Shown piece by piece: positions 2,666-20,452 of a stretch of 64,000 nucleotides of DNA. Numbering within the stretch: the stretch's first letter is position 1; every line of letters begins with the position of its first letter. The notes beneath the pieces were generated by a model that did no database searches, was not told the origin of the DNA, and worked only from the letters and a program-made list of their open reading frames with translations. Made by a program: the position numbers and the translations under genes. Origin of the DNA: Pirellulales bacterium (lineage in GTDB: Bacteria > Planctomycetota > Planctomycetia > Pirellulales > JADZDJ01); assembly GCA_963820835.1 (NCBI GenBank), contig CAWGBP010000005.1:6257-70256 (forward strand), in the 5' to 3' direction.

Positions 2666-4192
2666 GTGCGCTACTGGGCGCGGGCTTTATGCGGCGTGCT
2701 TCAAACGCTGAGAAAAACAATGATTTCAATGAAGAAGGGCGTTCGAATTCGAGAATTCGTGCTTGAGGACGAAATTGGCGTCGGGGGAAATTCCATTGTT
2801 TGGAAAGCAGTCGACACGAACCTTGGCAGAAACGTTGCGATCAAATGCCCCCTCAGAAAAGGCAGCAATCTGTCCGAAACGGAGATGGAAGAGTTCAAAC
2901 GAGAGGCACAACGCGGTGCGAAGCTCGTCCACTCGAATATCGTTCAGGTATATCAGATTATCGAAGAATCAAATGACCTATTTCTTGTTTTGGAATTTGT
3001 TGATGGAACCTCGCTTTGGGACGATTTTCGCAGTCGCGCTAAGGACGGAACGGCGCTGCCGCTGGATCAGTCGATTTCGATTCTGAAGGAGATCCTGCTA
3101 GGGCTTTCTTATGCTCATGCGCAGGGAATTTGCCACCGTGATCTCAAGCCAGCAAATATTCTGTTGACGAACAGTAGGATTCCAAAAATCGCTGACTTGG
3201 GAATCGCTCGGGCATTGTCCCCTGAACCCGTCGACGCACATGCTCATCCGTCACAGCGCCAAGGTGGAACTGGAACACCAGAATTTATGTCGCCGGAGCA
3301 AGCACGGGGAGAGGACGCTGATTTCCAATCGGATCTCTTCATGGTCGGAATCATTGGCTACTTGCTACTTTCTGGACGTCATCCATTTGCACATCCGAGC
3401 GGATTGTTTCAGGTGAGTGAGTTGTTGCTGGACGATAACTATTCTCCAGCTCCACTACGTGCATCCCCGAGTATGGCATCTGGCGATGCGAAATTGTTTC
3501 GAGAGTATGCTGCCGTGGTTGTTAGGTTGTTAGAGCGTGAACGTGCCTCGAGGTTCGCATCCGCCAGTGACGCGGTGCGAGCGATCGATGCCGTTACTCC
3601 ATTCGTGGACTGCCCGAGCTGCGGCAGCCGTCTTCCTGAAGCAAGTAGATTTTGCAGCCAGTGTGGAGAACCCATTCCCGGCGGTGCGCCGCTGTCGACG
3701 GGTTCCGTCTTACAAGGACGAACCGCTCGGGAATTGGACGACGAGGGTTTTCGATTAGCGCGGCAGCAGCGCTGGGATGAAGCGATTGTCCACTACCGCC
3801 GTTCCATCGAAATGGACGGTAAATTCCAGCGGACGTACTGGAATCTATCTTACGCACTCAATCACATTGGAGAGTATCCGAAAGCGATCGACATTGCCAC
3901 GCGAGGACTCGGGTTACCGCAAAATGAACCGCGTCATACTGCAAATCTGCTAGGTGTTCGCGCGTTCTCGTACGGCAAGTTGAAGAAGTACGATGACGCG
4001 ATCCACGATCTTACCCAAGCCATCGAAATTGACTCTAATGGGATCGAGCATCTGTATTCCCGTGGAAGAGTATATGCCTACAATGGCGATGTTGCATCGG
4101 CCCGCGCCGATGCCCGCAGTGTGCTTGCACGAAATCCGGAGCACTCGGGGGCTCTGCGATTATTGAGCGAGATAGGAGACGATCAAGCGTAA
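2666..4192 (+). CDS. Ser/Thr protein kinase with central zinc-ribbon and C-terminal TPR repeats
   Basis: Kinase motifs GVGGNSIVWKA...AIK, HRDLKPANILL, DLGIA and SPE. A zinc ribbon CPSCGSRL...CSQCGE follows, then TPR-like repeats (WNLSYAL, YSRGRVY). The true start may be the internal Met at about 2720. Confidence 0.8.
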   Translation: MRYWARALCGVLQTLRKTMISMKKGVRIREFVLEDEIGVGGNSIVWKAVDTNLGRNVAIKCPLRKGSNLSETEMEEFKREAQRGAKLVHSNIVQVYQIIEESNDLFLVLEFVDGTSLWDDFRSRAKDGTALPLDQSISILKEILLGLSYAHAQGICHRDLKPANILLTNSRIPKIADLGIARALSPEPVDAHAHPSQRQGGTGTPEFMSPEQARGEDADFQSDLFMVGIIGYLLLSGRHPFAHPSGLFQVSELLLDDNYSPAPLRASPSMASGDAKLFREYAAVVVRLLERERASRFASASDAVRAIDAVTPFVDCPSCGSRLPEASRFCSQCGEPIPGGAPLSTGSVLQGRTARELDDEGFRLARQQRWDEAIVHYRRSIEMDGKFQRTYWNLSYALNHIGEYPKAIDIATRGLGLPQNEPRHTANLLGVRAFSYGKLKKYDDAIHDLTQAIEIDSNGIEHLYSRGRVYAYNGDVASARADARSVLARNPEHSGALRLLSEIGDDQA

Positions 4193-4851
4193 CCACCCCA
4201 AATTGACGAGTCATGACCGCGCTGGCGAAACAGTCACAGTATCCAATGTTCGTCGGGCTCGCATGGGGCGGGAATGGCCTACAGCGACCCACGCTTTGCG
4301 ACGGGCGAGCTGTCCGGCAGTGGCGAGTGGACTGATCCGTCGATCAGCATGAGAAAGGCATATTCTGTCGCATTAGCGCCCAGTCCATGTGAACTTGCGT
4401 GGATGCCTTGAAGTGATGAAGCTCCCAGAGGACGGCGCGCCATCCAAGGTTGCCGATAGTTCGGAGCCACGGACTGACTCGGCGAGTGATCCGTACCCTG
4501 GCCCAACACGGTGGTGGTGTCCGAAAGTGCTATGGATCGATTCCCCAACTTAACAGGCTTCTTAACGAATCTCGCCCGAGGGTTGCCCTTGGTCATTCGC
4601 TTTGACCTGAGGAGGGCCTACGGCACTCGCTGGGCATCACGGGTAAAACCGGCGACATTACAGCTTCGAATGCGCTATGAGAGCATCGAGACGACCCTGA
4701 AATATTATGTAGCGCAATCGGCAGACGATGTAGCTAGTGAGCTTTGGAACGACAGGAGTTCAAAGTGTGGCGGAAACCGTTCAAGTGATATATGTGCGAA
4801 AACGAATCCGGCGGAACGGCGGTTAACGAGTGGATTGTATTAAACATCGGT

Positions 4852-6777
4852 TTACGGCTTTGCCATCGCTGGTTTTTGGTCTTCCGCATGGGTCGGTTCT
4901 CCAGAGCCGTTCTGGACTTCGGTGGCTTTCTGGGCTTCGACAGCTTTCTGGGCTTCGACAGCTTTTTGGGCTTCGGCGGCCTTCTGAGCTTCGGCGAGCT
5001 TGGTGAAAGCCGATAGGAAGTTTTCCGTCGATTTAACTTGTCCAGATAGCGTAGTAATCAAGGGGTCGGAGGAGCCAGCGACGATTTCTTTCAGTCGGTT
5101 AAGCAAGTCAGTTGCACGATCAGTTTGCTGCATACTTGCATAAATCTCGACCTCGCGCAACATTGCCCATATCGTCATATCCCGGCCAGGGGTGCCCTCA
5201 GGTCCGAAGTCGGAAATGAGTTTGTCAAAGGCTTCGATTGCTTTGGCCCGGTCGAGGACTTGATGCGTGACACCAATGTAGTAACGACCAATTGCGGAGT
5301 ACCTCCGTAGGCTCGAAGGATCGGCGTCGAAACGTGCCACTAATGCATCGAAGATTATGGCTGCTGCTGCATTTTCGTGCTTTACGGAATGCACATAATA
5401 GCCCTTGCAGTACATTGAGCTGCCGATGCGAGCCAGGTATTTCTCATCGGGCGCAACGTCATTGGCGCTCGTTGCAATTCGATTAAGTAAGTCGCATGCC
5501 TCGGTCACACGCTGTAGCGACTGAACTAGGTTCGGCCTTAGCACGTCATTCAGCGCCTGCATTAAAGCTTCGCACTGCCGACTATCAAAATGGGAAACGT
5601 CGAGCGCCAGGGCACGGTCGATAACTTCTTGGTAGGCGGATCGTCGTAACGAATCTCGAATTTGTTCGAGTGACTCTTCATTGGCTTCCCGTTGAAATTT
5701 CTCGAGTGTGTTGGCGTGGGAGATACGTGAGATTACGCCATTGATACCGTATAGATCTCCCGGTGTGTCGTCTTTATCGTGTATGACGGAACGTTTAAGG
5801 TGATCTGCATAAAAGCCAAGAGGGTCGGTGGTAAGTTTTGGGGCAGCCAGCGAGAAACCCTGGACGAATGCGTCCATAACCTGCTGGGCACTCAATGTCG
5901 CTTCTGACGGCCGAATGTCCACTGGGGTACTAATTCCATTTGACTCGGTTCGATTCGGTTCCTCTTTACGAGTGCCGTCTGGTAGGATGAAGCGGACATC
6001 TTGGTGCTCTCTAAGCCATTGAGGTAACGATTCGTAATCCGCGTAGCGGTAGCAAAACCAATAGAGTCGGTAGGCGAGACCCTGGCCGCTGAGGCGTCTG
6101 CGTAGAGCTGACATGATGACGTCCTCTTCCCATCCAGAATAGCCGACAACAAGCGGCGAACGCTTTGCGAGGATGCGATCGAGAAGGCTGGCCATTGTTG
6201 CGGTAGTGTTGGCTGACATGGCCGATCGATTGAGGACCTCATCCTTCAAGTTGCAACAATCGTAAAACCAGTAGGTTCCGTGCACATGGATGATTTGAAC
6301 AATGTCGTGTCGCTCTGGGTCGATTCGTACAGCTGTTTGCGGATGGTCACATTGCGTGAAGTATTTTCCGAACAAGTTGAGGCCGCCGGCAAGCTGGTCA
6401 TCGAAATTCGGGGTGACTATGATGTCAGCCAACTGTCCTGATTCGAGTATGTGAGCCAATCTTAAATTGGCCGGCGATACCGGTTTGTTGTGAATTAGCT
6501 CATGCAAATATGTGCGCCGTTCGGCCGCATGGGGATATGCACTGTCAAACCAATGTGAGTAGTTGTCCATCGTTGTTCTTCGTGTGTGATCCTTAACTAC
6601 TCCGTCTGAGATAGCTTTTGCTTGGCAATGCTCAGTTATTTCTGCCGCTAATGGGATTGGTGGGGACGAAATTCCGGCACCAACGATAAAGAAAAATGGG
6701 CGGAAATCGCTATCAGTGTGCGGTGCGCACCCTTGGCGGATTTCTCGAATAGCGGTTTTAAGGTCGATGTTGTGCAT
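4852..6777 (-). CDS. SIR2-like (SIR2_2 / DSR-ThsA-type) domain protein with long C-terminal alpha-helical region and AEAQK repeat tail
   Basis: N-terminal motifs FFFIVGAGISSPP (Gly-rich NAD site), IVTPNFDDQL (TxNxD) and IHVHGTYWF (catalytic HG). There is no P-loop. The C-terminal ~350 aa are helical. Confidence 0.65.
   Translation of the reverse strand: MHNIDLKTAIREIRQGCAPHTDSDFRPFFFIVGAGISSPPIPLAAEITEHCQAKAISDGVVKDHTRRTTMDNYSHWFDSAYPHAAERRTYLHELIHNKPVSPANLRLAHILESGQLADIIVTPNFDDQLAGGLNLFGKYFTQCDHPQTAVRIDPERHDIVQIIHVHGTYWFYDCCNLKDEVLNRSAMSANTTATMASLLDRILAKRSPLVVGYSGWEEDVIMSALRRRLSGQGLAYRLYWFCYRYADYESLPQWLREHQDVRFILPDGTRKEEPNRTESNGISTPVDIRPSEATLSAQQVMDAFVQGFSLAAPKLTTDPLGFYADHLKRSVIHDKDDTPGDLYGINGVISRISHANTLEKFQREANEESLEQIRDSLRRSAYQEVIDRALALDVSHFDSRQCEALMQALNDVLRPNLVQSLQRVTEACDLLNRIATSANDVAPDEKYLARIGSSMYCKGYYVHSVKHENAAAAIIFDALVARFDADPSSLRRYSAIGRYYIGVTHQVLDRAKAIEAFDKLISDFGPEGTPGRDMTIWAMLREVEIYASMQQTDRATDLLNRLKEIVAGSSDPLITTLSGQVKSTENFLSAFTKLAEAQKAAEAQKAVEAQKAVEAQKATEVQNGSGEPTHAEDQKPAMAKP
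4912..5001. repeat. Five tandem 18-bp units (ctgggcttcgacagcttt-like) inside the 3' end of the SIR2-like gene, encoding an (AEAQKA)n tail
   Basis: Direct reading of the DNA: units at 4912, 4930, 4948, 4966 and 4984. The minus-strand protein tail reads KLAEAQKAAEAQKAVEAQKAVEAQKATE. Confidence 0.85.
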
Positions 6778-6810
6778 GGCGGGTCTTGCCAGTAAGGTAC
6801 TTGACCGAAC

Positions 6811-7518
6811 TTACGTCGGAACGTGCCACCATGCGACGCTATCTAGAGCCAGCCGCGACTCCGGGATCAAGCGTTCGACCTGTTCCAACCGGAGAATGTC
6901 AGTGTGTCGTCTTGCAGCTTGAACGGTTTGGTCAAAGTTAGGATTTCGGATGGCGGCTTGCAGTACGTCAAGCGACGCTGTTTTACTCAGGTCGCGTAGC
7001 ATAATTGCATTTTGACAGCCTTGCATAGCTCGTAGCAATTCGTTCGTTGTCTGCGGAAGCCCATTTTTGATAGGAACATGCACGGCAAGTGTCTTATTCT
7101 GACGTTCGACAGCCGCGCCAAAGGCCCACTCAAGCTGCTCATTACCTTGCATTTCCACCCAATACGCCTCTTTGTTTGGCACGTCTACTATGACGAATGC
7201 GGCCGGCACATGGATCTCTCGGAGATAGTATCGGGCCTTTTCAATGCTCAAATCACGGAAGCTAATGGTAGTTCCATTGTCGATAACTTCCAGCTTAAGC
7301 GTTCCCTTTTGCTGTACTTTGAATATGTCTCCACTCGGTTGATCTCCTGCATGCATGAGTTCAATCTCGTAATCGATACCAAAGTCTTCCTGGTCCTGCT
7401 GGTTCCGTGCAACCAGCCTAGACGGTAGCTTGTCTAAAAAGACGCGGTCTGCAGCCCGGCTGATTTCTTTTGGTGTCATTTCTGGGACGGACATCAGTTT
7501 TCGTCCATTTGGCGGCAA
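6811..7518 (-). CDS. Hypothetical protein with PD-(D/E)xK-like core (DUF4365-like), co-operonic with the SIR2-like gene
   Basis: DFGIDYEIEL...GDIFKVQQKGT gives a D..ExE..QxK arrangement. Then ARYYL...PAAFVIVDV...AYWVEMQ. The gene lies 33 nt upstream of the SIR2 gene on the same strand, with an AT-rich putative promoter at 7519-7675. Confidence 0.4.
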   Translation of the reverse strand: MPPNGRKLMSVPEMTPKEISRAADRVFLDKLPSRLVARNQQDQEDFGIDYEIELMHAGDQPSGDIFKVQQKGTLKLEVIDNGTTISFRDLSIEKARYYLREIHVPAAFVIVDVPNKEAYWVEMQGNEQLEWAFGAAVERQNKTLAVHVPIKNGLPQTTNELLRAMQGCQNAIMLRDLSKTASLDVLQAAIRNPNFDQTVQAARRHTDILRLEQVERLIPESRLALDSVAWWHVPT

Positions 7519-7675
7519 TTAAAGCTGGAAGTGCATCGTAATGTGCATCTCTAAACTATTAACCGCCGTTTCGAGAGAATTTTTTTCACGCCGTAAAGGC
7601 ACTCCCGCCTATAAGTAACTTCACGGGATCATCGCATTTCACACAACAATATGACTGGAACCTGGCTTCATGATT

Positions 7676-17260: not shown

Positions 17261-19404
17261 ATCGACACTCGCAATGCGTCCTTTTCGTATTTTTTCCACT
17301 CCTTCTTACCGGCAACGCCAGTTGCAAGTGTAATCTTTGAGCACGCCCATTGTTTAATAGCCTCTGCAACTTTTTTATCGCCTGCCTTGTCAATGGCAGA
17401 TTTTAATTTAGATATATCGTGTTGTAGTCTAAGGGCGTAGAAGAAACGTCCAGTTTCTCCAAAGGTGAACCGATCAAACTCGTTCTTGGTTTCCCCGGTG
17501 CAAATCCTACTCAAAGTCTTCTGGGCATCCTGGATCTCGTCATCCGCGTCCTGCGCCCGCCAGTCTTCTAGCCTTCTTATTTTCTCCGCTGTTTGCGGAG
17601 GTCCCATATGTACCAATAGGTCGAAGCGACCTGAACGAATAATGGCTCCGTCAAAACTACCGATGTAGTTTGTGGCCATGAAATAGATGCACCTCCCACC
17701 TTGATTAAGTCGCTGTAGTTTTGGAAGCATGCTGGTAGTAAGTAACTGCTGGGAGACATCGATTGGATTAGTTGAAGCATCGGTTTCGGCAACATCACGA
17801 CTCTGAACAAGCGCGTCCATTTCGTCAAATAGGACGACTACGCCATACAAGTCCTGAAGGTCCTCGAAAACCTCAGAAACCTTGTTGTAAATACCTTCCA
17901 AGCCCGCACTGAGAAAGTCCGAGGGCGATAGTTCAACAAAATACCAACCTAAACGTTTAGCCACCGCTGCGCAGAGCGTTGTTTTGGAAGTTCCTGGCGG
18001 ACCAAAGAGAACCGCAGAATGCCGACACTTCAGGTATAGCCGCGGTGATAGAGATGCATTTTCTAAGAGTTGCTCTGTTGGCTCAAGAATTTCTTTGTCG
18101 ATTAGTTTTTTAACTGAATTTCGATCGTCAACTATGTCGCATTCTTTTGCCTTAAGAAAATGAAAATCCAGGTATTTGTCCCACGCGGCCTTTTCTTTTG
18201 GCCAAGATCGCGCTCGATTTTGAAATTTTGCCAGAACTGTGTCCCTGATGTGAATTGACAATTGATTGTTGAGACGAGCCAAGAACATATGCGCGACGCC
18301 GGTTGGCCAAGACTCTGGCTCGCCACGGCGCATGGCTTGAATGTCGCCACCGGCGTTCCAACCATAAAAGACCTTTCCATTGTGACGAAACTCAAGTCTG
18401 TTGAATTCCAACCAGGTAAGTGCCTTGTCAAGACGCCGCAAAGTATCTGGATCAGAAAGGATCTCCGGAAACTCGGATACGACTGCTTCAAGTACTTCGA
18501 AATGCCAACAATGGTTGGGACCAGATGTCGGATAGTGAAAGATGGGAAAGTATTTCTCCCAAACACCTGATTGCTCGTTTTGCTTTTCAAAAAAAGCCTT
18601 GATCCCTCCCCTCAACTCAGACTCTGATGGAAATTGCGTTTTCTTCAAAGCTTCGTAGAGTTCAACTGATTTTTCTGCAAATCTTTGTAGAGATCGGCAT
18701 AAGCAAGCTGCCATTGCCAACGCAACGGGATCCATCATCGCCTGATACTCGGCTGCAATGAGTGAGTGTTGTCGTCTGAATTCTGCGGCCGCCCAATTGG
18801 CGAGTTCCTGTGCGGAATCGCTTTCCAACCTGACACAAAGTTTGGACGCTGCGTCGACGATCCAAAAACCAATTGTCGGTGATGCGGGGAAAGGCGATAG
18901 GGCGAATGTGGCATCAGGGACTTTCAAATATTCTTCAAGGATTGCGATGATGGATTTGCGGTTGCAGATTCGCCATGCATCAGGAACGTCAGGTTCATCG
19001 TTGTACGATCGATATTCCTCTGAAACGTTTTTTTCACTTAATACTCGAGCCGCACGCATAAATCCTGCCGCCCTCGCCACAACAGCTACGGTGAACGCGT
19101 TATTTGCCGGAAGGCCGCCTGTGTCCCATGGTTGACCCATTATTATTGAGAATGCTTGTAAAGCTTTCTTTGTCGGACGAAAAACCATGGATGGTATTCC
19201 TGCAACGCAGAATGCCATCCAAGCCGTACAAGTCGGTGTAACGCTAGGAGCACTTAATGGCGATGGTGGCCTGCTTGGAAGACGATAAAAAAAGGTGGAC
19301 CCCTCGGGGTCTCGAAACGCCGCATGGTCGTCGACGAGAGTACTTCCAAGGTTGCGTGTACGTTCGCGGAGCTGACGCAACGTCTTAAGTAGCTTAATTG
19401 ACAT
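17254..19404 (-). CDS. AAA+ ATPase (classic AAA clade) with ~460-aa N-terminal domain of unknown function
   Basis: C-terminal half: Walker A LFGPPGTSKTT, Walker B VVLFDEMDAL and a sensor/arginine-finger region. The start overlaps the upstream PurA-like gene by 11 nt. Confidence 0.7.
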   Translation of the reverse strand: MSIKLLKTLRQLRERTRNLGSTLVDDHAAFRDPEGSTFFYRLPSRPPSPLSAPSVTPTCTAWMAFCVAGIPSMVFRPTKKALQAFSIIMGQPWDTGGLPANNAFTVAVVARAAGFMRAARVLSEKNVSEEYRSYNDEPDVPDAWRICNRKSIIAILEEYLKVPDATFALSPFPASPTIGFWIVDAASKLCVRLESDSAQELANWAAAEFRRQHSLIAAEYQAMMDPVALAMAACLCRSLQRFAEKSVELYEALKKTQFPSESELRGGIKAFFEKQNEQSGVWEKYFPIFHYPTSGPNHCWHFEVLEAVVSEFPEILSDPDTLRRLDKALTWLEFNRLEFRHNGKVFYGWNAGGDIQAMRRGEPESWPTGVAHMFLARLNNQLSIHIRDTVLAKFQNRARSWPKEKAAWDKYLDFHFLKAKECDIVDDRNSVKKLIDKEILEPTEQLLENASLSPRLYLKCRHSAVLFGPPGTSKTTLCAAVAKRLGWYFVELSPSDFLSAGLEGIYNKVSEVFEDLQDLYGVVVLFDEMDALVQSRDVAETDASTNPIDVSQQLLTTSMLPKLQRLNQGGRCIYFMATNYIGSFDGAIIRSGRFDLLVHMGPPQTAEKIRRLEDWRAQDADDEIQDAQKTLSRICTGETKNEFDRFTFGETGRFFYALRLQHDISKLKSAIDKAGDKKVAEAIKQWACSKITLATGVAGKKEWKKYEKDALRVSIQ

Positions 19405-20452
19405 TAGCTACCTCTCTGGAGCATTCGTTGGCCAGCGAGATTGCATCGAATGTACCAAAGCCAGTACCAACCCAATCGATTGGTGCTCGTAACTCGGCTT
19501 TAAGAAGTGAGAGAAAGTCGACGGCCTTCGAAGTGAGTGTAGCCAAACTTTCAGCGCCGCGATTGGCATAGTCCAATCGGTCGAGGCCCATAACCGCAAT
19601 GGAAGTTGGCTTGTTATAATCGAACGCCTTTCGCACCAATTCTAGATCGAACATTGCCACCCGACGGAGCTTTTTCGTAACTGAGGTGTATTCCGGCTCA
19701 ACCGTCGGTGCGCCCGATATTTCTTGCACATACTTCCAATTGATTTCATTCGCAATTGGGCCGCTATTACCTCCAACGCGAATCGGAAATGTTCGGATAA
19801 CCATTACAATTTCGCTAACATCACGCGGTGAAATTCCCACCTCAGCAGCGAACGCGGCCGCGGTCGTATCTTTGGAAGTCACGTATGGGTAATCCGGGCC
19901 ATGAAGCAAAGAAAGGCCAAATCCCTGTGTTCCTTCCACGATTACATTTCTTCTTTGGCGGATTAAGTCGTGAACAAGTGGTGCGACCGGCTCGATTCGA
20001 GCAACGCGTGCGATCAATTGTGAATTTGCCGCTAGAACCGGTGTAGATCGAAGCAGTCGCCTGGATGATGCACTTCCAGTACCCGAACCCGTACTTGCAA
20101 TTGACCGAGTCAGTGGTGATTCGTGGACCTTGTCAGCTTCTGAAATTGTCGCGGCTCGTGGATCAACAATTACGCGTGACCGCGTAATCCCAAGATCGGT
20201 TATTTCGTCTACCAGAACAGATTCGTCGACAACCGCACCTGCTGCAATTGCCACAATTGCATCCGAAATTGCAACAGACGAGGGCAAATGCCGGAGGATC
20301 TGATCGGTGAAGCCGACGGACGTTGTATGTCCTGAATTCGGCCCTCCGCACCGAACGACGCATGAAATTGGCCGCGTGCGTGAAAGGAGAGCAACAACTT
20401 TGCCCTTGCCTTCCGATCCGTATTGTCCACCAACAACTATGGTCACTGGCAT
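19394..20452 (-). CDS. Short (352 aa) adenylosuccinate-synthetase-family enzyme (archaeal-PurA / PurZ-like size) with non-canonical P-loop GSEGKGK
   Basis: Motifs match PurA: GGQYGSEGKGKV for QWGDEGKGK, GGPNSGHT for GGHNAGHT, and EGTQGFGLSLLHGPDYPYVTSKDTT for [24 protein letters not shown]. The catalytic Asp13 equivalent is replaced by Ser. It is ~80 aa shorter than bacterial PurA. Confidence 0.7.
   Translation of the reverse strand: MPVTIVVGGQYGSEGKGKVVALLSRTRPISCVVRCGGPNSGHTTSVGFTDQILRHLPSSVAISDAIVAIAAGAVVDESVLVDEITDLGITRSRVIVDPRAATISEADKVHESPLTRSIASTGSGTGSASSRRLLRSTPVLAANSQLIARVARIEPVAPLVHDLIRQRRNVIVEGTQGFGLSLLHGPDYPYVTSKDTTAAAFAAEVGISPRDVSEIVMVIRTFPIRVGGNSGPIANEINWKYVQEISGAPTVEPEYTSVTKKLRRVAMFDLELVRKAFDYNKPTSIAVMGLDRLDYANRGAESLATLTSKAVDFLSLLKAELRAPIDWVGTGFGTFDAISLANECSREVANVN

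Follow-up and report, generated by a model that had tools for sequence, protein, structure and literature searches.

Do two immune-type genes that lie 33 nt apart on one strand make up a single defence system, or are they only neighbours? This question is raised by a pair of genes in a 64,000-nt stretch of contig CAWGBP010000005.1 (assembly GCA_963820835.1), which we analysed as a whole and refer to as the window. The downstream gene of the pair encodes a 641-amino-acid (aa) protein with an NADase-type SIR2 domain followed by helical repeats of the tetratricopeptide repeat (TPR) kind, here called SIR2-TPR, and the upstream gene encodes a nuclease-like DUF4365 domain. An earlier interpretation of the locus, hereafter the sequence-only reading, had proposed the two genes as a candidate two-gene defence module. 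Every sequence feature described in that reading was confirmed. The elements on which the question turns are the following:

4852-6777, minus strand: SIR2-TPR gene, an open reading frame (ORF) that starts with ATG and encodes 641 aa plus stop
6778-6810, minus strand: spacer of 33 nt between both ORFs, defined by its sequence and three-frame translation
6811-7494, minus strand: DUF4365 gene, apparently truncated at its 3' end, 227 aa comprising a nuclease core and linker helices

To see whether the two gene families co-occur in other genomes, we compared 82 SIR2-TPR loci, namely those of the two closest relatives and 80 genome loci from GTDB species representatives, with 71 metagenome loci that carry the DUF4365 N-domain. 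A hidden Markov model (HMM) of the N-domain identified DUF4365 within 6 kb of SIR2-TPR in none of the 82 loci; neither of the closest relatives (62% and 47% identity) has a DUF4365 neighbour, and DUF4365 is not among the recurrent families flanking SIR2-TPR in this set. Conversely, SIR2-TPR was found near the DUF4365 N-domain in 0/71 loci, and no fusion of DUF4365 with SIR2_2 is present among the matches listed for either family (120 and 150, respectively). All-versus-all clustering of the ORFs in the 82 loci yielded only shadow ORFs and clusters of at most six loci as recurrent partners of SIR2-TPR, and Pfam and PADLOC scans of its 135 nearest neighbours in these loci uncovered no recurrent family, these neighbours being heterogeneous (UbiA, aldehyde dehydrogenase, histidine kinases, glycosidases and a few TPR proteins). 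The pairing is thus unique to this locus, and its simplest reading is juxtaposition plus truncation. Because the pair never co-occurs elsewhere, our working hypothesis, which we hold to be probable, is that two unrelated, single-protein immune genes of an 'effector plus helical-repeat sensor' type adjoin each other in a low-GC island that borders a Type I restriction-modification (R-M) locus. It is unlikely that they represent a newly formed functional pair. They may be co-transcribed through position alone, and co-transcription is no evidence for joint function. Thus, the co-occurrence check went against the proposed two-gene module.

The upstream gene itself points to a rearrangement. Its ORF (6811-7518) opens with TTG, and the likelier starts are the ATG codons at 7494 (227 aa) or 7479 (222 aa), the latter being the position at which the family alignments begin. 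The encoded protein matches Pfam PF14280 (DUF4365; E 9.4e-16) and carries the nuclease core GIDYEIE...FKVQQKG; its best PADLOC match is Aga_REase (6.8e-8; residues 32-121 only), and it weakly matches PDC-M02A (2e-5), while the scan, which covered ten proteins at the locus, gave no match to any other PDC-M02 model. A word-indexed search with this protein returned only the protein itself and one 163-aa fragment, and a word-indexed search with a profile of the N-domain returned 14 proteins, mostly fragmentary. An exhaustive HMMER scan of 1.84 billion representatives gave 553 matches, of which 176 were below 1e-10; the great majority are 600-645 aa long, of which only the first ~210 residues can be aligned with the window protein. 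An alignment of 60 full-length members revealed a DUF4365 core, a long and poorly conserved helical region, and a highly conserved C-terminal module with four invariant cysteines (Cys4). In the AlphaFold model of a full-length member (predicted local distance difference test score, pLDDT, 94; predicted template modelling score, pTM, 0.86), these correspond to a PD-(D/E)xK domain (residues 1-140), linker helices (145-206), a helical solenoid (210-487) and a small alpha/beta Cys-rich domain (498-605). Using Foldseek, the N-domain of the family matched the DREN nuclease of SPARDA filaments (3.6e-5; ~154 columns, root-mean-square deviation (rmsd) 3-4 A, ~20% identity), and the solenoid matched TPR domains of the LGN/Pins type.

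Measured against this family, the window protein has the nuclease motif D..DxExE..KxQxK, and it is without the solenoid and the four-Cys module. Its homology to the family ends around residue 214 ('LEQVERLIPE') and is followed by 13 unrelated residues and the stop. Searches for the missing C-terminal ~390 aa by tblastn with 149 family members against the 64-kb window, with an HMM of the C-domain on all window ORFs of at least 50 aa, and by six-frame reading of 4193-4851 and of the gene junction revealed no remnant. As the ORF comes to an end at aa 227 and the window holds no remains of the solenoid or the Cys4 module, we classify the upstream gene as a truncated member, corresponding to the N-terminal third, of an unnamed family of ~610 aa with predicted DUF4365, TPR-like solenoid and Cys4 parts. 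The sequence-only reading was right that a nuclease-like core is encoded 33 nt away on the same strand, in that this core is of the DUF4365, PD-(D/E)xK and DREN-like type; the protein is not a dedicated small one, as it consists of the first ~214 residues of a larger protein plus 13 unrelated ones. The stub may be a pseudogene of recent origin or, alternatively, a nuclease domain that has lost its regulation. A like-for-like replacement of the sensor, in which the helical part of SIR2-TPR would stand in for the missing nuclease helices, was also considered and rejected, as BLASTP detected nothing and hhalign gave a probability of 1%.

Elsewhere, the ~610-aa family keeps conspicuous company. 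Among the 71 loci, the N- and C-domains reside in one ~610-aa ORF in most of those that are long enough, and the neighbours of this ORF include Type I R-M genes, GajA-like ATPases (Gabija-like), Mrr, Fic, integrases and primase-helicases. Specifically, the gene lies between hsdM and hsdR in locus L101 and just before hsdR in locus L134, and the context on the contig holding P0272 is similar to these neighbourhoods. On this basis, the family looks like a defence-island gene independent of SIR2-TPR, and it is a candidate for a defence protein that works as a single gene. Variants of the architecture were also found. In L154, DUF4365 is fused to canonical Pfam TPR repeats; a 1138-aa protein in L147 (6962-10375) combines DUF4365 and TPR with a weak PIN-TPR-GreABC match and, by its domain content, appears to link the nuclease head to the effector-TPR-GreA/B-C-PIN systems discussed below. 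In L142 (1-1970), the DUF4365 N-domain is directly followed by a Mu-like transposase (rve, Mu-transpos_C), which shows that mobile elements can break up members of this family. In two loci from different samples, L152 (1390-2352) and L153 (344-2362), a 164-aa DUF4365 ORF is followed by one in-frame stop and a TPR ORF, the TPR protein having its full length of 508 aa in L153, whereas in L152 the contig ends within it. Either the nuclease head and the sensor are naturally encoded apart here, or the two loci share a nonsense codon or a site of read-through. Archaeal genes on plasmids of Natrinema and Halomicrobium (H2 and H3), annotated as 'DUF4365 domain-containing protein', match only the Cys4 module (residues ~475-595), which is therefore present in haloarchaea as well. 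In the literature that we searched, DUF4365 is treated almost only as a nuclease associated with prokaryotic Argonautes (pAgo).

The downstream gene has a different ancestry. The 641-aa translation contains VGAGIS (residues 32-37), TPNFDD (122-127) and HVHG (164-167), and it scores 34.4 bits, against a cut-off of 24.5, with Pfam PF13289 (SIR2_2; E 2.7e-8; residues 119-256); there was no match to the housekeeping family PF02146 at E <= 0.01, and the sequence contains no CxxC pairs of the kind that form the sirtuin Zn-ribbon. The best PADLOC matches are to pAgo-associated SIR2 (Aga_SIR2; 2e-17; SIR2 domain only), and there is a weak match of the SIR2 domain to PDC-S65 (SIR2; 1e-6). From these matches and an AlphaFold model with a mean pLDDT of 83, we divide the protein as follows:

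5968-6777, minus strand: SIR2 (NADase-type) domain, aa 1-270, with GAGIS, TPNFDD and HVHG, from the motifs and the model
5593-5967, minus strand: disordered linker, aa 271-289, followed by the middle domain, aa ~290-395, which is helical and conserved, from the model
5065-5592, minus strand: TPR-like helical repeat region, aa ~396-571, variable, the putative sensor
4855-5064, minus strand: C-terminal long helix and A/E/K-rich low-complexity tail, from Tandem Repeats Finder (TRF) and the model

In the model, the strands of the SIR2 domain alternate with helices, consistent with a Rossmann-type fold. The linker has a pLDDT below 50, and residues ~297-622 are all-helical, comprising the middle-domain helices (297-391), helix pairs (399-567) and a terminal long helix (572-622) after which the pLDDT again drops below 50. 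The assignment of the helix pairs as TPR is based on a weak TPR_6 match in the window protein itself and on strong TPR matches in most of its homologues; similarly, a family profile searched against PDB sequences matched the 'Sir2 superfamily protein' 8jkz/8in8 (2.8e-6) and consensus TPR structures. In Foldseek, the top ranks (1e-7) went to SPARSA SIR2-APAZ and DSR2, with KomC/HAM-SIR2 and ThsA next; the listing covered 50 of the 79 matches with E <= 0.001 and contained neither a deacylase nor a housekeeping sirtuin. The Pfam gathering score is passed and the pocket Asn and His are conserved, which places the domain in the SIR2_2 NADase class with a predicted activity. Altogether, the 641-aa protein is best described as a defence-type sirtuin on a TPR scaffold for which NADase activity is predicted. 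This agrees with the sequence-only reading, which had named the SIR2_2 signatures GAGIS, TxNFD and HVHG, assigned the protein to the defence NADase type rather than to the housekeeping sirtuins, and anticipated a helical C-terminal region, which the model resolves into TPR repeats following the general plan of DSR-type proteins.

The same reading had singled out an (AEAQKA)n tail. This tail is encoded by an 18-nt tandem repeat of 5.1 copies with 82% matching (4910-5001; TRF). Because the closest planctomycete-type relatives (P0002-P0005) have A/E/K-rich tails, as does P0078, the tail is a feature of the clade rather than a one-off product of slippage. Four cysteines in the SIR2 domain (C51, C143, C174 and C242) are invariant or at least 90% conserved in the family and might bind a metal or serve in redox chemistry. 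A collection of 15 billion proteins lacks the exact 641-aa product, while the 227-aa protein, the product of a 105-aa ORF at 4279-4596, and HsdR are on record from one NCBI/ENA contig; the source annotation probably uses another start or gene call for the SIR2 gene.

To place SIR2-TPR among its relatives, we searched a collection of 5.8 billion proteins (E <= 1e-3; 8000 candidates scored) and obtained at least 408 matches, nearly all annotated with SIR2_2 and several TPR families. These homologues are 440 to more than 1000 aa long, with 1 to more than 10 Pfam TPR families each. Their hosts are mostly Planctomycetota, Acidobacteriota, Myxococcota and Nitrospirota, but also Cyanobacteria, and a few members are scattered over Bacillota, on chromosomes as well as on plasmids, and over metagenome-assembled genomes (MAGs) of methanogens; several copies are present in some MAGs. 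Strong conservation across an alignment of 31 members is seen in the first ~390 residues, with N124 and D126 as invariant positions, G33, G35 and H166 shared by at least 90% of the members, and P313, P319, L327, Y343 and R378 as invariant residues of the middle domain. The TPR part differs in length and sequence among these members and aligns poorly. The N-terminus is conserved as the start of the protein in all aligned homologues, and a plasmid copy in Priestia megaterium, annotated as 'SIR2 family protein', stands alone. The conserved start, the conserved ~390 residues, and folds shared with DSR2, SPARSA, ThsA and KomC make the members of this large, unnamed, stand-alone family look self-sufficient, and the window gene is an intact member of it. 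No paper on 'SIR2-TPR' or on the ~610-aa family was found in the literature, and neither family is named or modelled in PADLOC (2023), beyond domain-level matches, or in NCBIfam.

The gene pair is flanked by hsdR on one side and by the unassigned 105-aa ORF (4279-4596) and then a kinase gene on the other. The elements upstream of the pair are:

7519-7675, minus strand: AT-richer spacer of 157 nt from the hsdR stop to the DUF4365 ORF, GC 0.427
7676-14857, minus strand: Type I R-M locus (Pfam and PADLOC)
7676-10609, minus strand: hsdR, directly upstream of the DUF4365 gene
10606-11232 and 11123-11554, minus strand: two small ORFs inside the R-M operon, between hsdS and hsdR
11511-12932, minus strand: hsdS (Pfam and PADLOC)
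13208-14857, minus strand: hsdM (Pfam and PADLOC)

The sequence-only reading had described both an adjoining Type I R-M locus and an AT-rich 157-nt spacer ahead of the pair, and both are borne out, the R-M locus by hsdR, hsdS and hsdM and the spacer by a GC content of 42.7% compared to 55.9% for the window. A promoter in this spacer is possible; a scan with the sigma-70 consensus revealed none. A scan for terminators predicted none between the SIR2 and DUF4365 ORFs and none in the 157-nt spacer; both scans are uninformative for a non-model, probably planctomycete, genome. On a larger scale, the first ~24 kb of the window have a GC content of 52-54% and the remainder (24001-64000) of 56-59%, consistent with the first ~24 kb being a horizontally acquired island with R-M and other conflict-type genes. 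The R-M locus, the low GC content and the occurrence of ~610-aa relatives among R-M, Gabija-like and integrase genes all support such an island. A tRNA gene that might mark an island edge was not detected in the 64-kb window.

Other genes in this part of the window are described here for completeness. The two small ORFs inside the R-M operon (10606-11232 and 11123-11554) had no match in Pfam, NCBIfam or PADLOC. Just past the R-M locus, a gene for a 716-aa AAA ATPase with weak PADLOC matches to IetA and TRIP13 (17254-19404, minus strand) overlaps by 11 nt with a gene for a 352-aa adenylosuccinate-synthetase-like protein (PF00709, partial; 19394-20452, minus strand); the GC content at third codon positions (GC3) of these two genes is low (0.45), and they may be another defence pair. 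Converging on the SIR2 gene from the other side, two plus-strand genes (38-2503 and 2666-4192) encode two more proteins of the 'enzyme plus TPR' kind, one with a trypsin-like protease, TPR and a DnaJ-type Cys-rich finger, the other with a Ser/Thr kinase, a Zn ribbon and TPR, and with generic kinase matches to the PD-T4-6 and mad6 models.

The ends of the gene pair are marked by an imperfect inverted repeat:

4798-4826, no strand assigned: arm 1, 29 nt, 26 nt downstream of the SIR2 stop
7559-7587, no strand assigned: arm 2, 29 nt, in the spacer upstream of the DUF4365 ORF

The arms, of the sequence type GAAAAAAATTCTCTCGAAACGGCGGTTAA, are 76% complementary (22/29) and share a perfect core of 12 nt, TTAACCGCCGTT, which occurs within the 64 kb at the two arms only. 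In 1000 shuffles of both spacers, 3 reached the length of the exact match and 0 the score of 22/29; in 1000 pairs of random real segments, the corresponding numbers were 6 and 2. The perfect core sits at the inner end of each arm, a position that is atypical for the termini of a transposon. The repeat may be a cassette boundary, a recombination site or due to chance.

Several features of the locus and of the SIR2-TPR family weigh against our working hypothesis and must be considered together with the rival explanations that they support. Most of them would suit a newly assembled two-gene, dual-effector module, in which the nuclease head, having lost its own sensor, would come under the control of SIR2-TPR in trans, through either the TPR region or the oligomerisation of that protein, and in which one sensing event would lead to NAD+ depletion as well as DNA degradation, the cassette being bounded by the inverted repeats. 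Thus, the two ORFs are closely spaced on the same strand with no predicted terminator between them; the arms of the inverted repeat enclose exactly the DUF4365 stub and SIR2-TPR, and this repeat is unlikely to arise by chance (p ~0.002-0.006, in a post hoc test); and the GC3 values of the two genes are alike (0.52 and 0.53) and unlike those of the hsd genes (0.64-0.73). Moreover, the stub has not decayed, in that all 14 invariant and 7 near-invariant residues of the N-domain, and with them the catalytic residues, are intact, and its score with the HMM of the family N-domain (249 bits) is within the range of full-length members, while the cut falls cleanly at the domain boundary between linker and solenoid. 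L152 and L153 provide a precedent for a nuclease head with a separately encoded TPR protein; the conflict systems predicted in PMC8195603 exchange restriction endonuclease (REase) and SIR2 domains as heads on a TPR scaffold, and both domains are effector types that are activated by oligomerisation in short pAgo systems. However, the pairing was seen zero further times in the 82 plus 71 loci, and the SIR2-TPR family otherwise stands alone. Because the missing helices of the nuclease are not homologous to the helical part of SIR2-TPR, a docking surface is not obviously preserved; the 13 unrelated residues at the end of the stub are what is expected after a rearrangement; and the repeat statistic is post hoc, with the perfect core at the inner and not the outer ends of the arms. 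We therefore regard a dual-effector module, whether defined by control of the nuclease head in trans or by the joint outcome of one sensing event in a repeat-bounded cassette, as an improbable explanation, and we are slightly more sceptical still of its most specific version, a recent abortive-infection cassette bounded by the inverted repeats in which the TPR sensor controls the NADase in cis and the DREN head in trans. Spacing, GC3, repeat and undecayed stub are compatible with a recent joint acquisition, and none of them implies functional coupling.

The junction also invites the suggestion that there is only one gene, encoding a DUF4365-SIR2-TPR fusion of ~880 aa that would be produced by read-through across the stop codon or that a very recent nonsense mutation, or else an error in sequencing, has interrupted. 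The two ORFs share a reading frame and are parted by a single TAA followed by 11 sense codons, and in L152 and L153 the DUF4365 and TPR ORFs are likewise separated by one in-frame stop. Against this, we estimate that two ORFs would be in frame without a further stop over 11 codons by chance in ~20% of cases, SIR2-TPR begins at the N-terminus that is conserved throughout its aligned homologues, the listed matches of both families lack a DUF4365+SIR2_2 architecture, and the last 13 residues of the stub are unrelated to either family; a single fused gene is, accordingly, very improbable. A further concern is whether SIR2-TPR is an immune protein at all, the defence role that we propose for it being drawn by analogy. 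In ~80 genomes, housekeeping genes predominate next to it, and very few of the 135 nearest neighbours matched a PADLOC model; the family is common in large-genome Acidobacteriota, Planctomycetota and Myxococcota of soil and water, which are rich in TPR signalling proteins; and the searched literature holds no tested member. SIR2-TPR could, on these grounds, be a regulatory or other NAD-dependent enzyme, e.g. a protein ADP-ribosyltransferase or a deacylase that the TPR region recruits to its targets, with its neighbours in the window being coincidental. Yet the protein has an SIR2_2 domain whose nearest relatives in sequence and fold are all antiphage NADases, the combination of a conserved enzymatic head with a variable repeat tail and multiple copies in some MAGs is the pattern of an immune receptor, one copy is plasmid-borne, and the window copy lies in a low-GC island with R-M genes. 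We consider a non-antiviral function doubtful, slightly more so than a dual-effector module in general terms.

Returning to our working hypothesis of two separate immune genes, we suggest by analogy with DSR2 that SIR2-TPR would act alone. As in DSR2 and other defence sirtuins, its TPR part would bind a phage-derived protein; binding of this ligand would relieve autoinhibition, probably via oligomerisation, upon which the SIR2 domain would hydrolyse NAD+ and the infection would abort. The stub would be the remnant of a neighbouring immune gene, the 3' two-thirds of which were presumably removed by a replacement or deletion as SIR2-TPR arrived.

If this hypothesis is correct, the claim of a new two-gene system fails and two candidate immune families remain. 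SIR2-TPR looks like a compact, TPR-based counterpart of DSR2 that lies beyond current defence-finder models except for domain-level matches and, if its predicted role is true, NAD-depletion immunity would extend to phyla with almost no validated defence systems. The ~610-aa family with its DREN-like nuclease, TPR-like solenoid and Cys4 module would be a second, uncharacterised immune candidate that occurs in R-M and Gabija-type islands. Both families carry on TPR scaffolds the same effector heads, SIR2 and DREN, as short Argonautes, and this supports the idea of these heads as interchangeable modules activated by oligomerisation. The locus also serves as a warning on guilt by adjacency: neighbours in a defence island that are tightly spaced, on the same strand and in frame need not form a system. 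Were the dual-effector cassette true instead, the locus would be a natural snapshot of effector heads being swapped or stacked on repeat-based immune sensors.

Finally, we compared the two proteins with known systems. The sequence-only reading had recognised none of Thoeris, DSR1/2, SIR2-HerA, SPARSA or Avs in the locus, and we came to the same result from the features that define these systems. A housekeeping sirtuin deacylase was rejected on the lack of PF02146, of CxxC pairs and of any deacylase among the listed Foldseek matches. Thoeris was rejected because no SLOG or TIR match was found with Pfam and PADLOC in the ten proteins around the locus, ThsA and the window protein being alike in the SIR2 fold only; Avs5/SIR2-STAND, because the window protein has no match to an NTPase family and no GxxxxGK[ST] motif, residues 297-395 being purely helical; and SIR2-HerA, because the flanking genes are hsdR, the 105-aa ORF and the kinase, with no HerA-type ATPase. 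For the upstream gene, SPARDA DREN-APAZ is the closest comparison: the stub is a DUF4365 domain with Aga_REase as its best PADLOC match, and the N-domain of its family superposes on DREN. The domain differs from SPARDA in being fused to a TPR-like solenoid and Cys4 in the family and to nothing in the window, and membership was rejected as the stub has no APAZ and neither flanking gene is a pAgo. PDC-M02, a short stand-alone DUF4365, and PDC-S65 were set aside as domain-level matches that are weaker than those to the pAgo-type models.

For SIR2-TPR, three comparisons are closer. Kaur, Iyer, Burroughs and Aravind (2021, eLife; PMC8195603) predicted effector-TPR-GreA/B-C-PIN conflict systems in which rapidly evolving TPR repeats bear one of ~13 effector heads at the N-terminus, REase and SIR2 being named explicitly among them. 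The SIR2-TPR and ~610-aa families conform to this known plan of an exchangeable head on a helical-repeat sensor. SIR2-TPR resembles the predicted systems in its effector head plus TPR; it was not counted among them, as it has no Pfam match to GreA/B-C or PIN (PF20698) and ends in a low-complexity helix. The SIR2 domain itself is closest to that of SPARSA SIR2-APAZ (Aga_SIR2, 2e-17; 8jkz/8in8, 2.8e-6; Foldseek match to 8y80, 1e-7), but these matches span the SIR2 domain only (residues ~54-244; Aga_SIR2, residues 66-246), the C-terminal part of the window protein being TPR without APAZ; SPARSA membership was rejected since there is no APAZ and neither gene flanking the pair is a pAgo. Over the whole chain, the best comparison is with DSR2 of Bacillus subtilis, the C-terminal alpha-helical repeat region of which binds the phage tail tube protein (PMC11850899). 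Both are single polypeptides with an N-terminal SIR2 NADase-type domain, a middle domain and helical repeats, and Foldseek aligned more than 600 columns (1e-7) with a poor rmsd. DSR2 differs in its size of ~1000 aa with an alpha-solenoid, compared to 641 aa with TPR, at an identity of 10-14%; the A/E/K tail of the window protein does not align with DSR2 chains, and no DSR model of PADLOC matched the window protein at E <= 0.01, nor did a Thoeris, HerA or Avs model. Membership in DSR2 proper was therefore rejected, only the general layout being common to both. We conclude that, in its predicted architecture, SIR2-TPR represents a compact variant of the DSR type.

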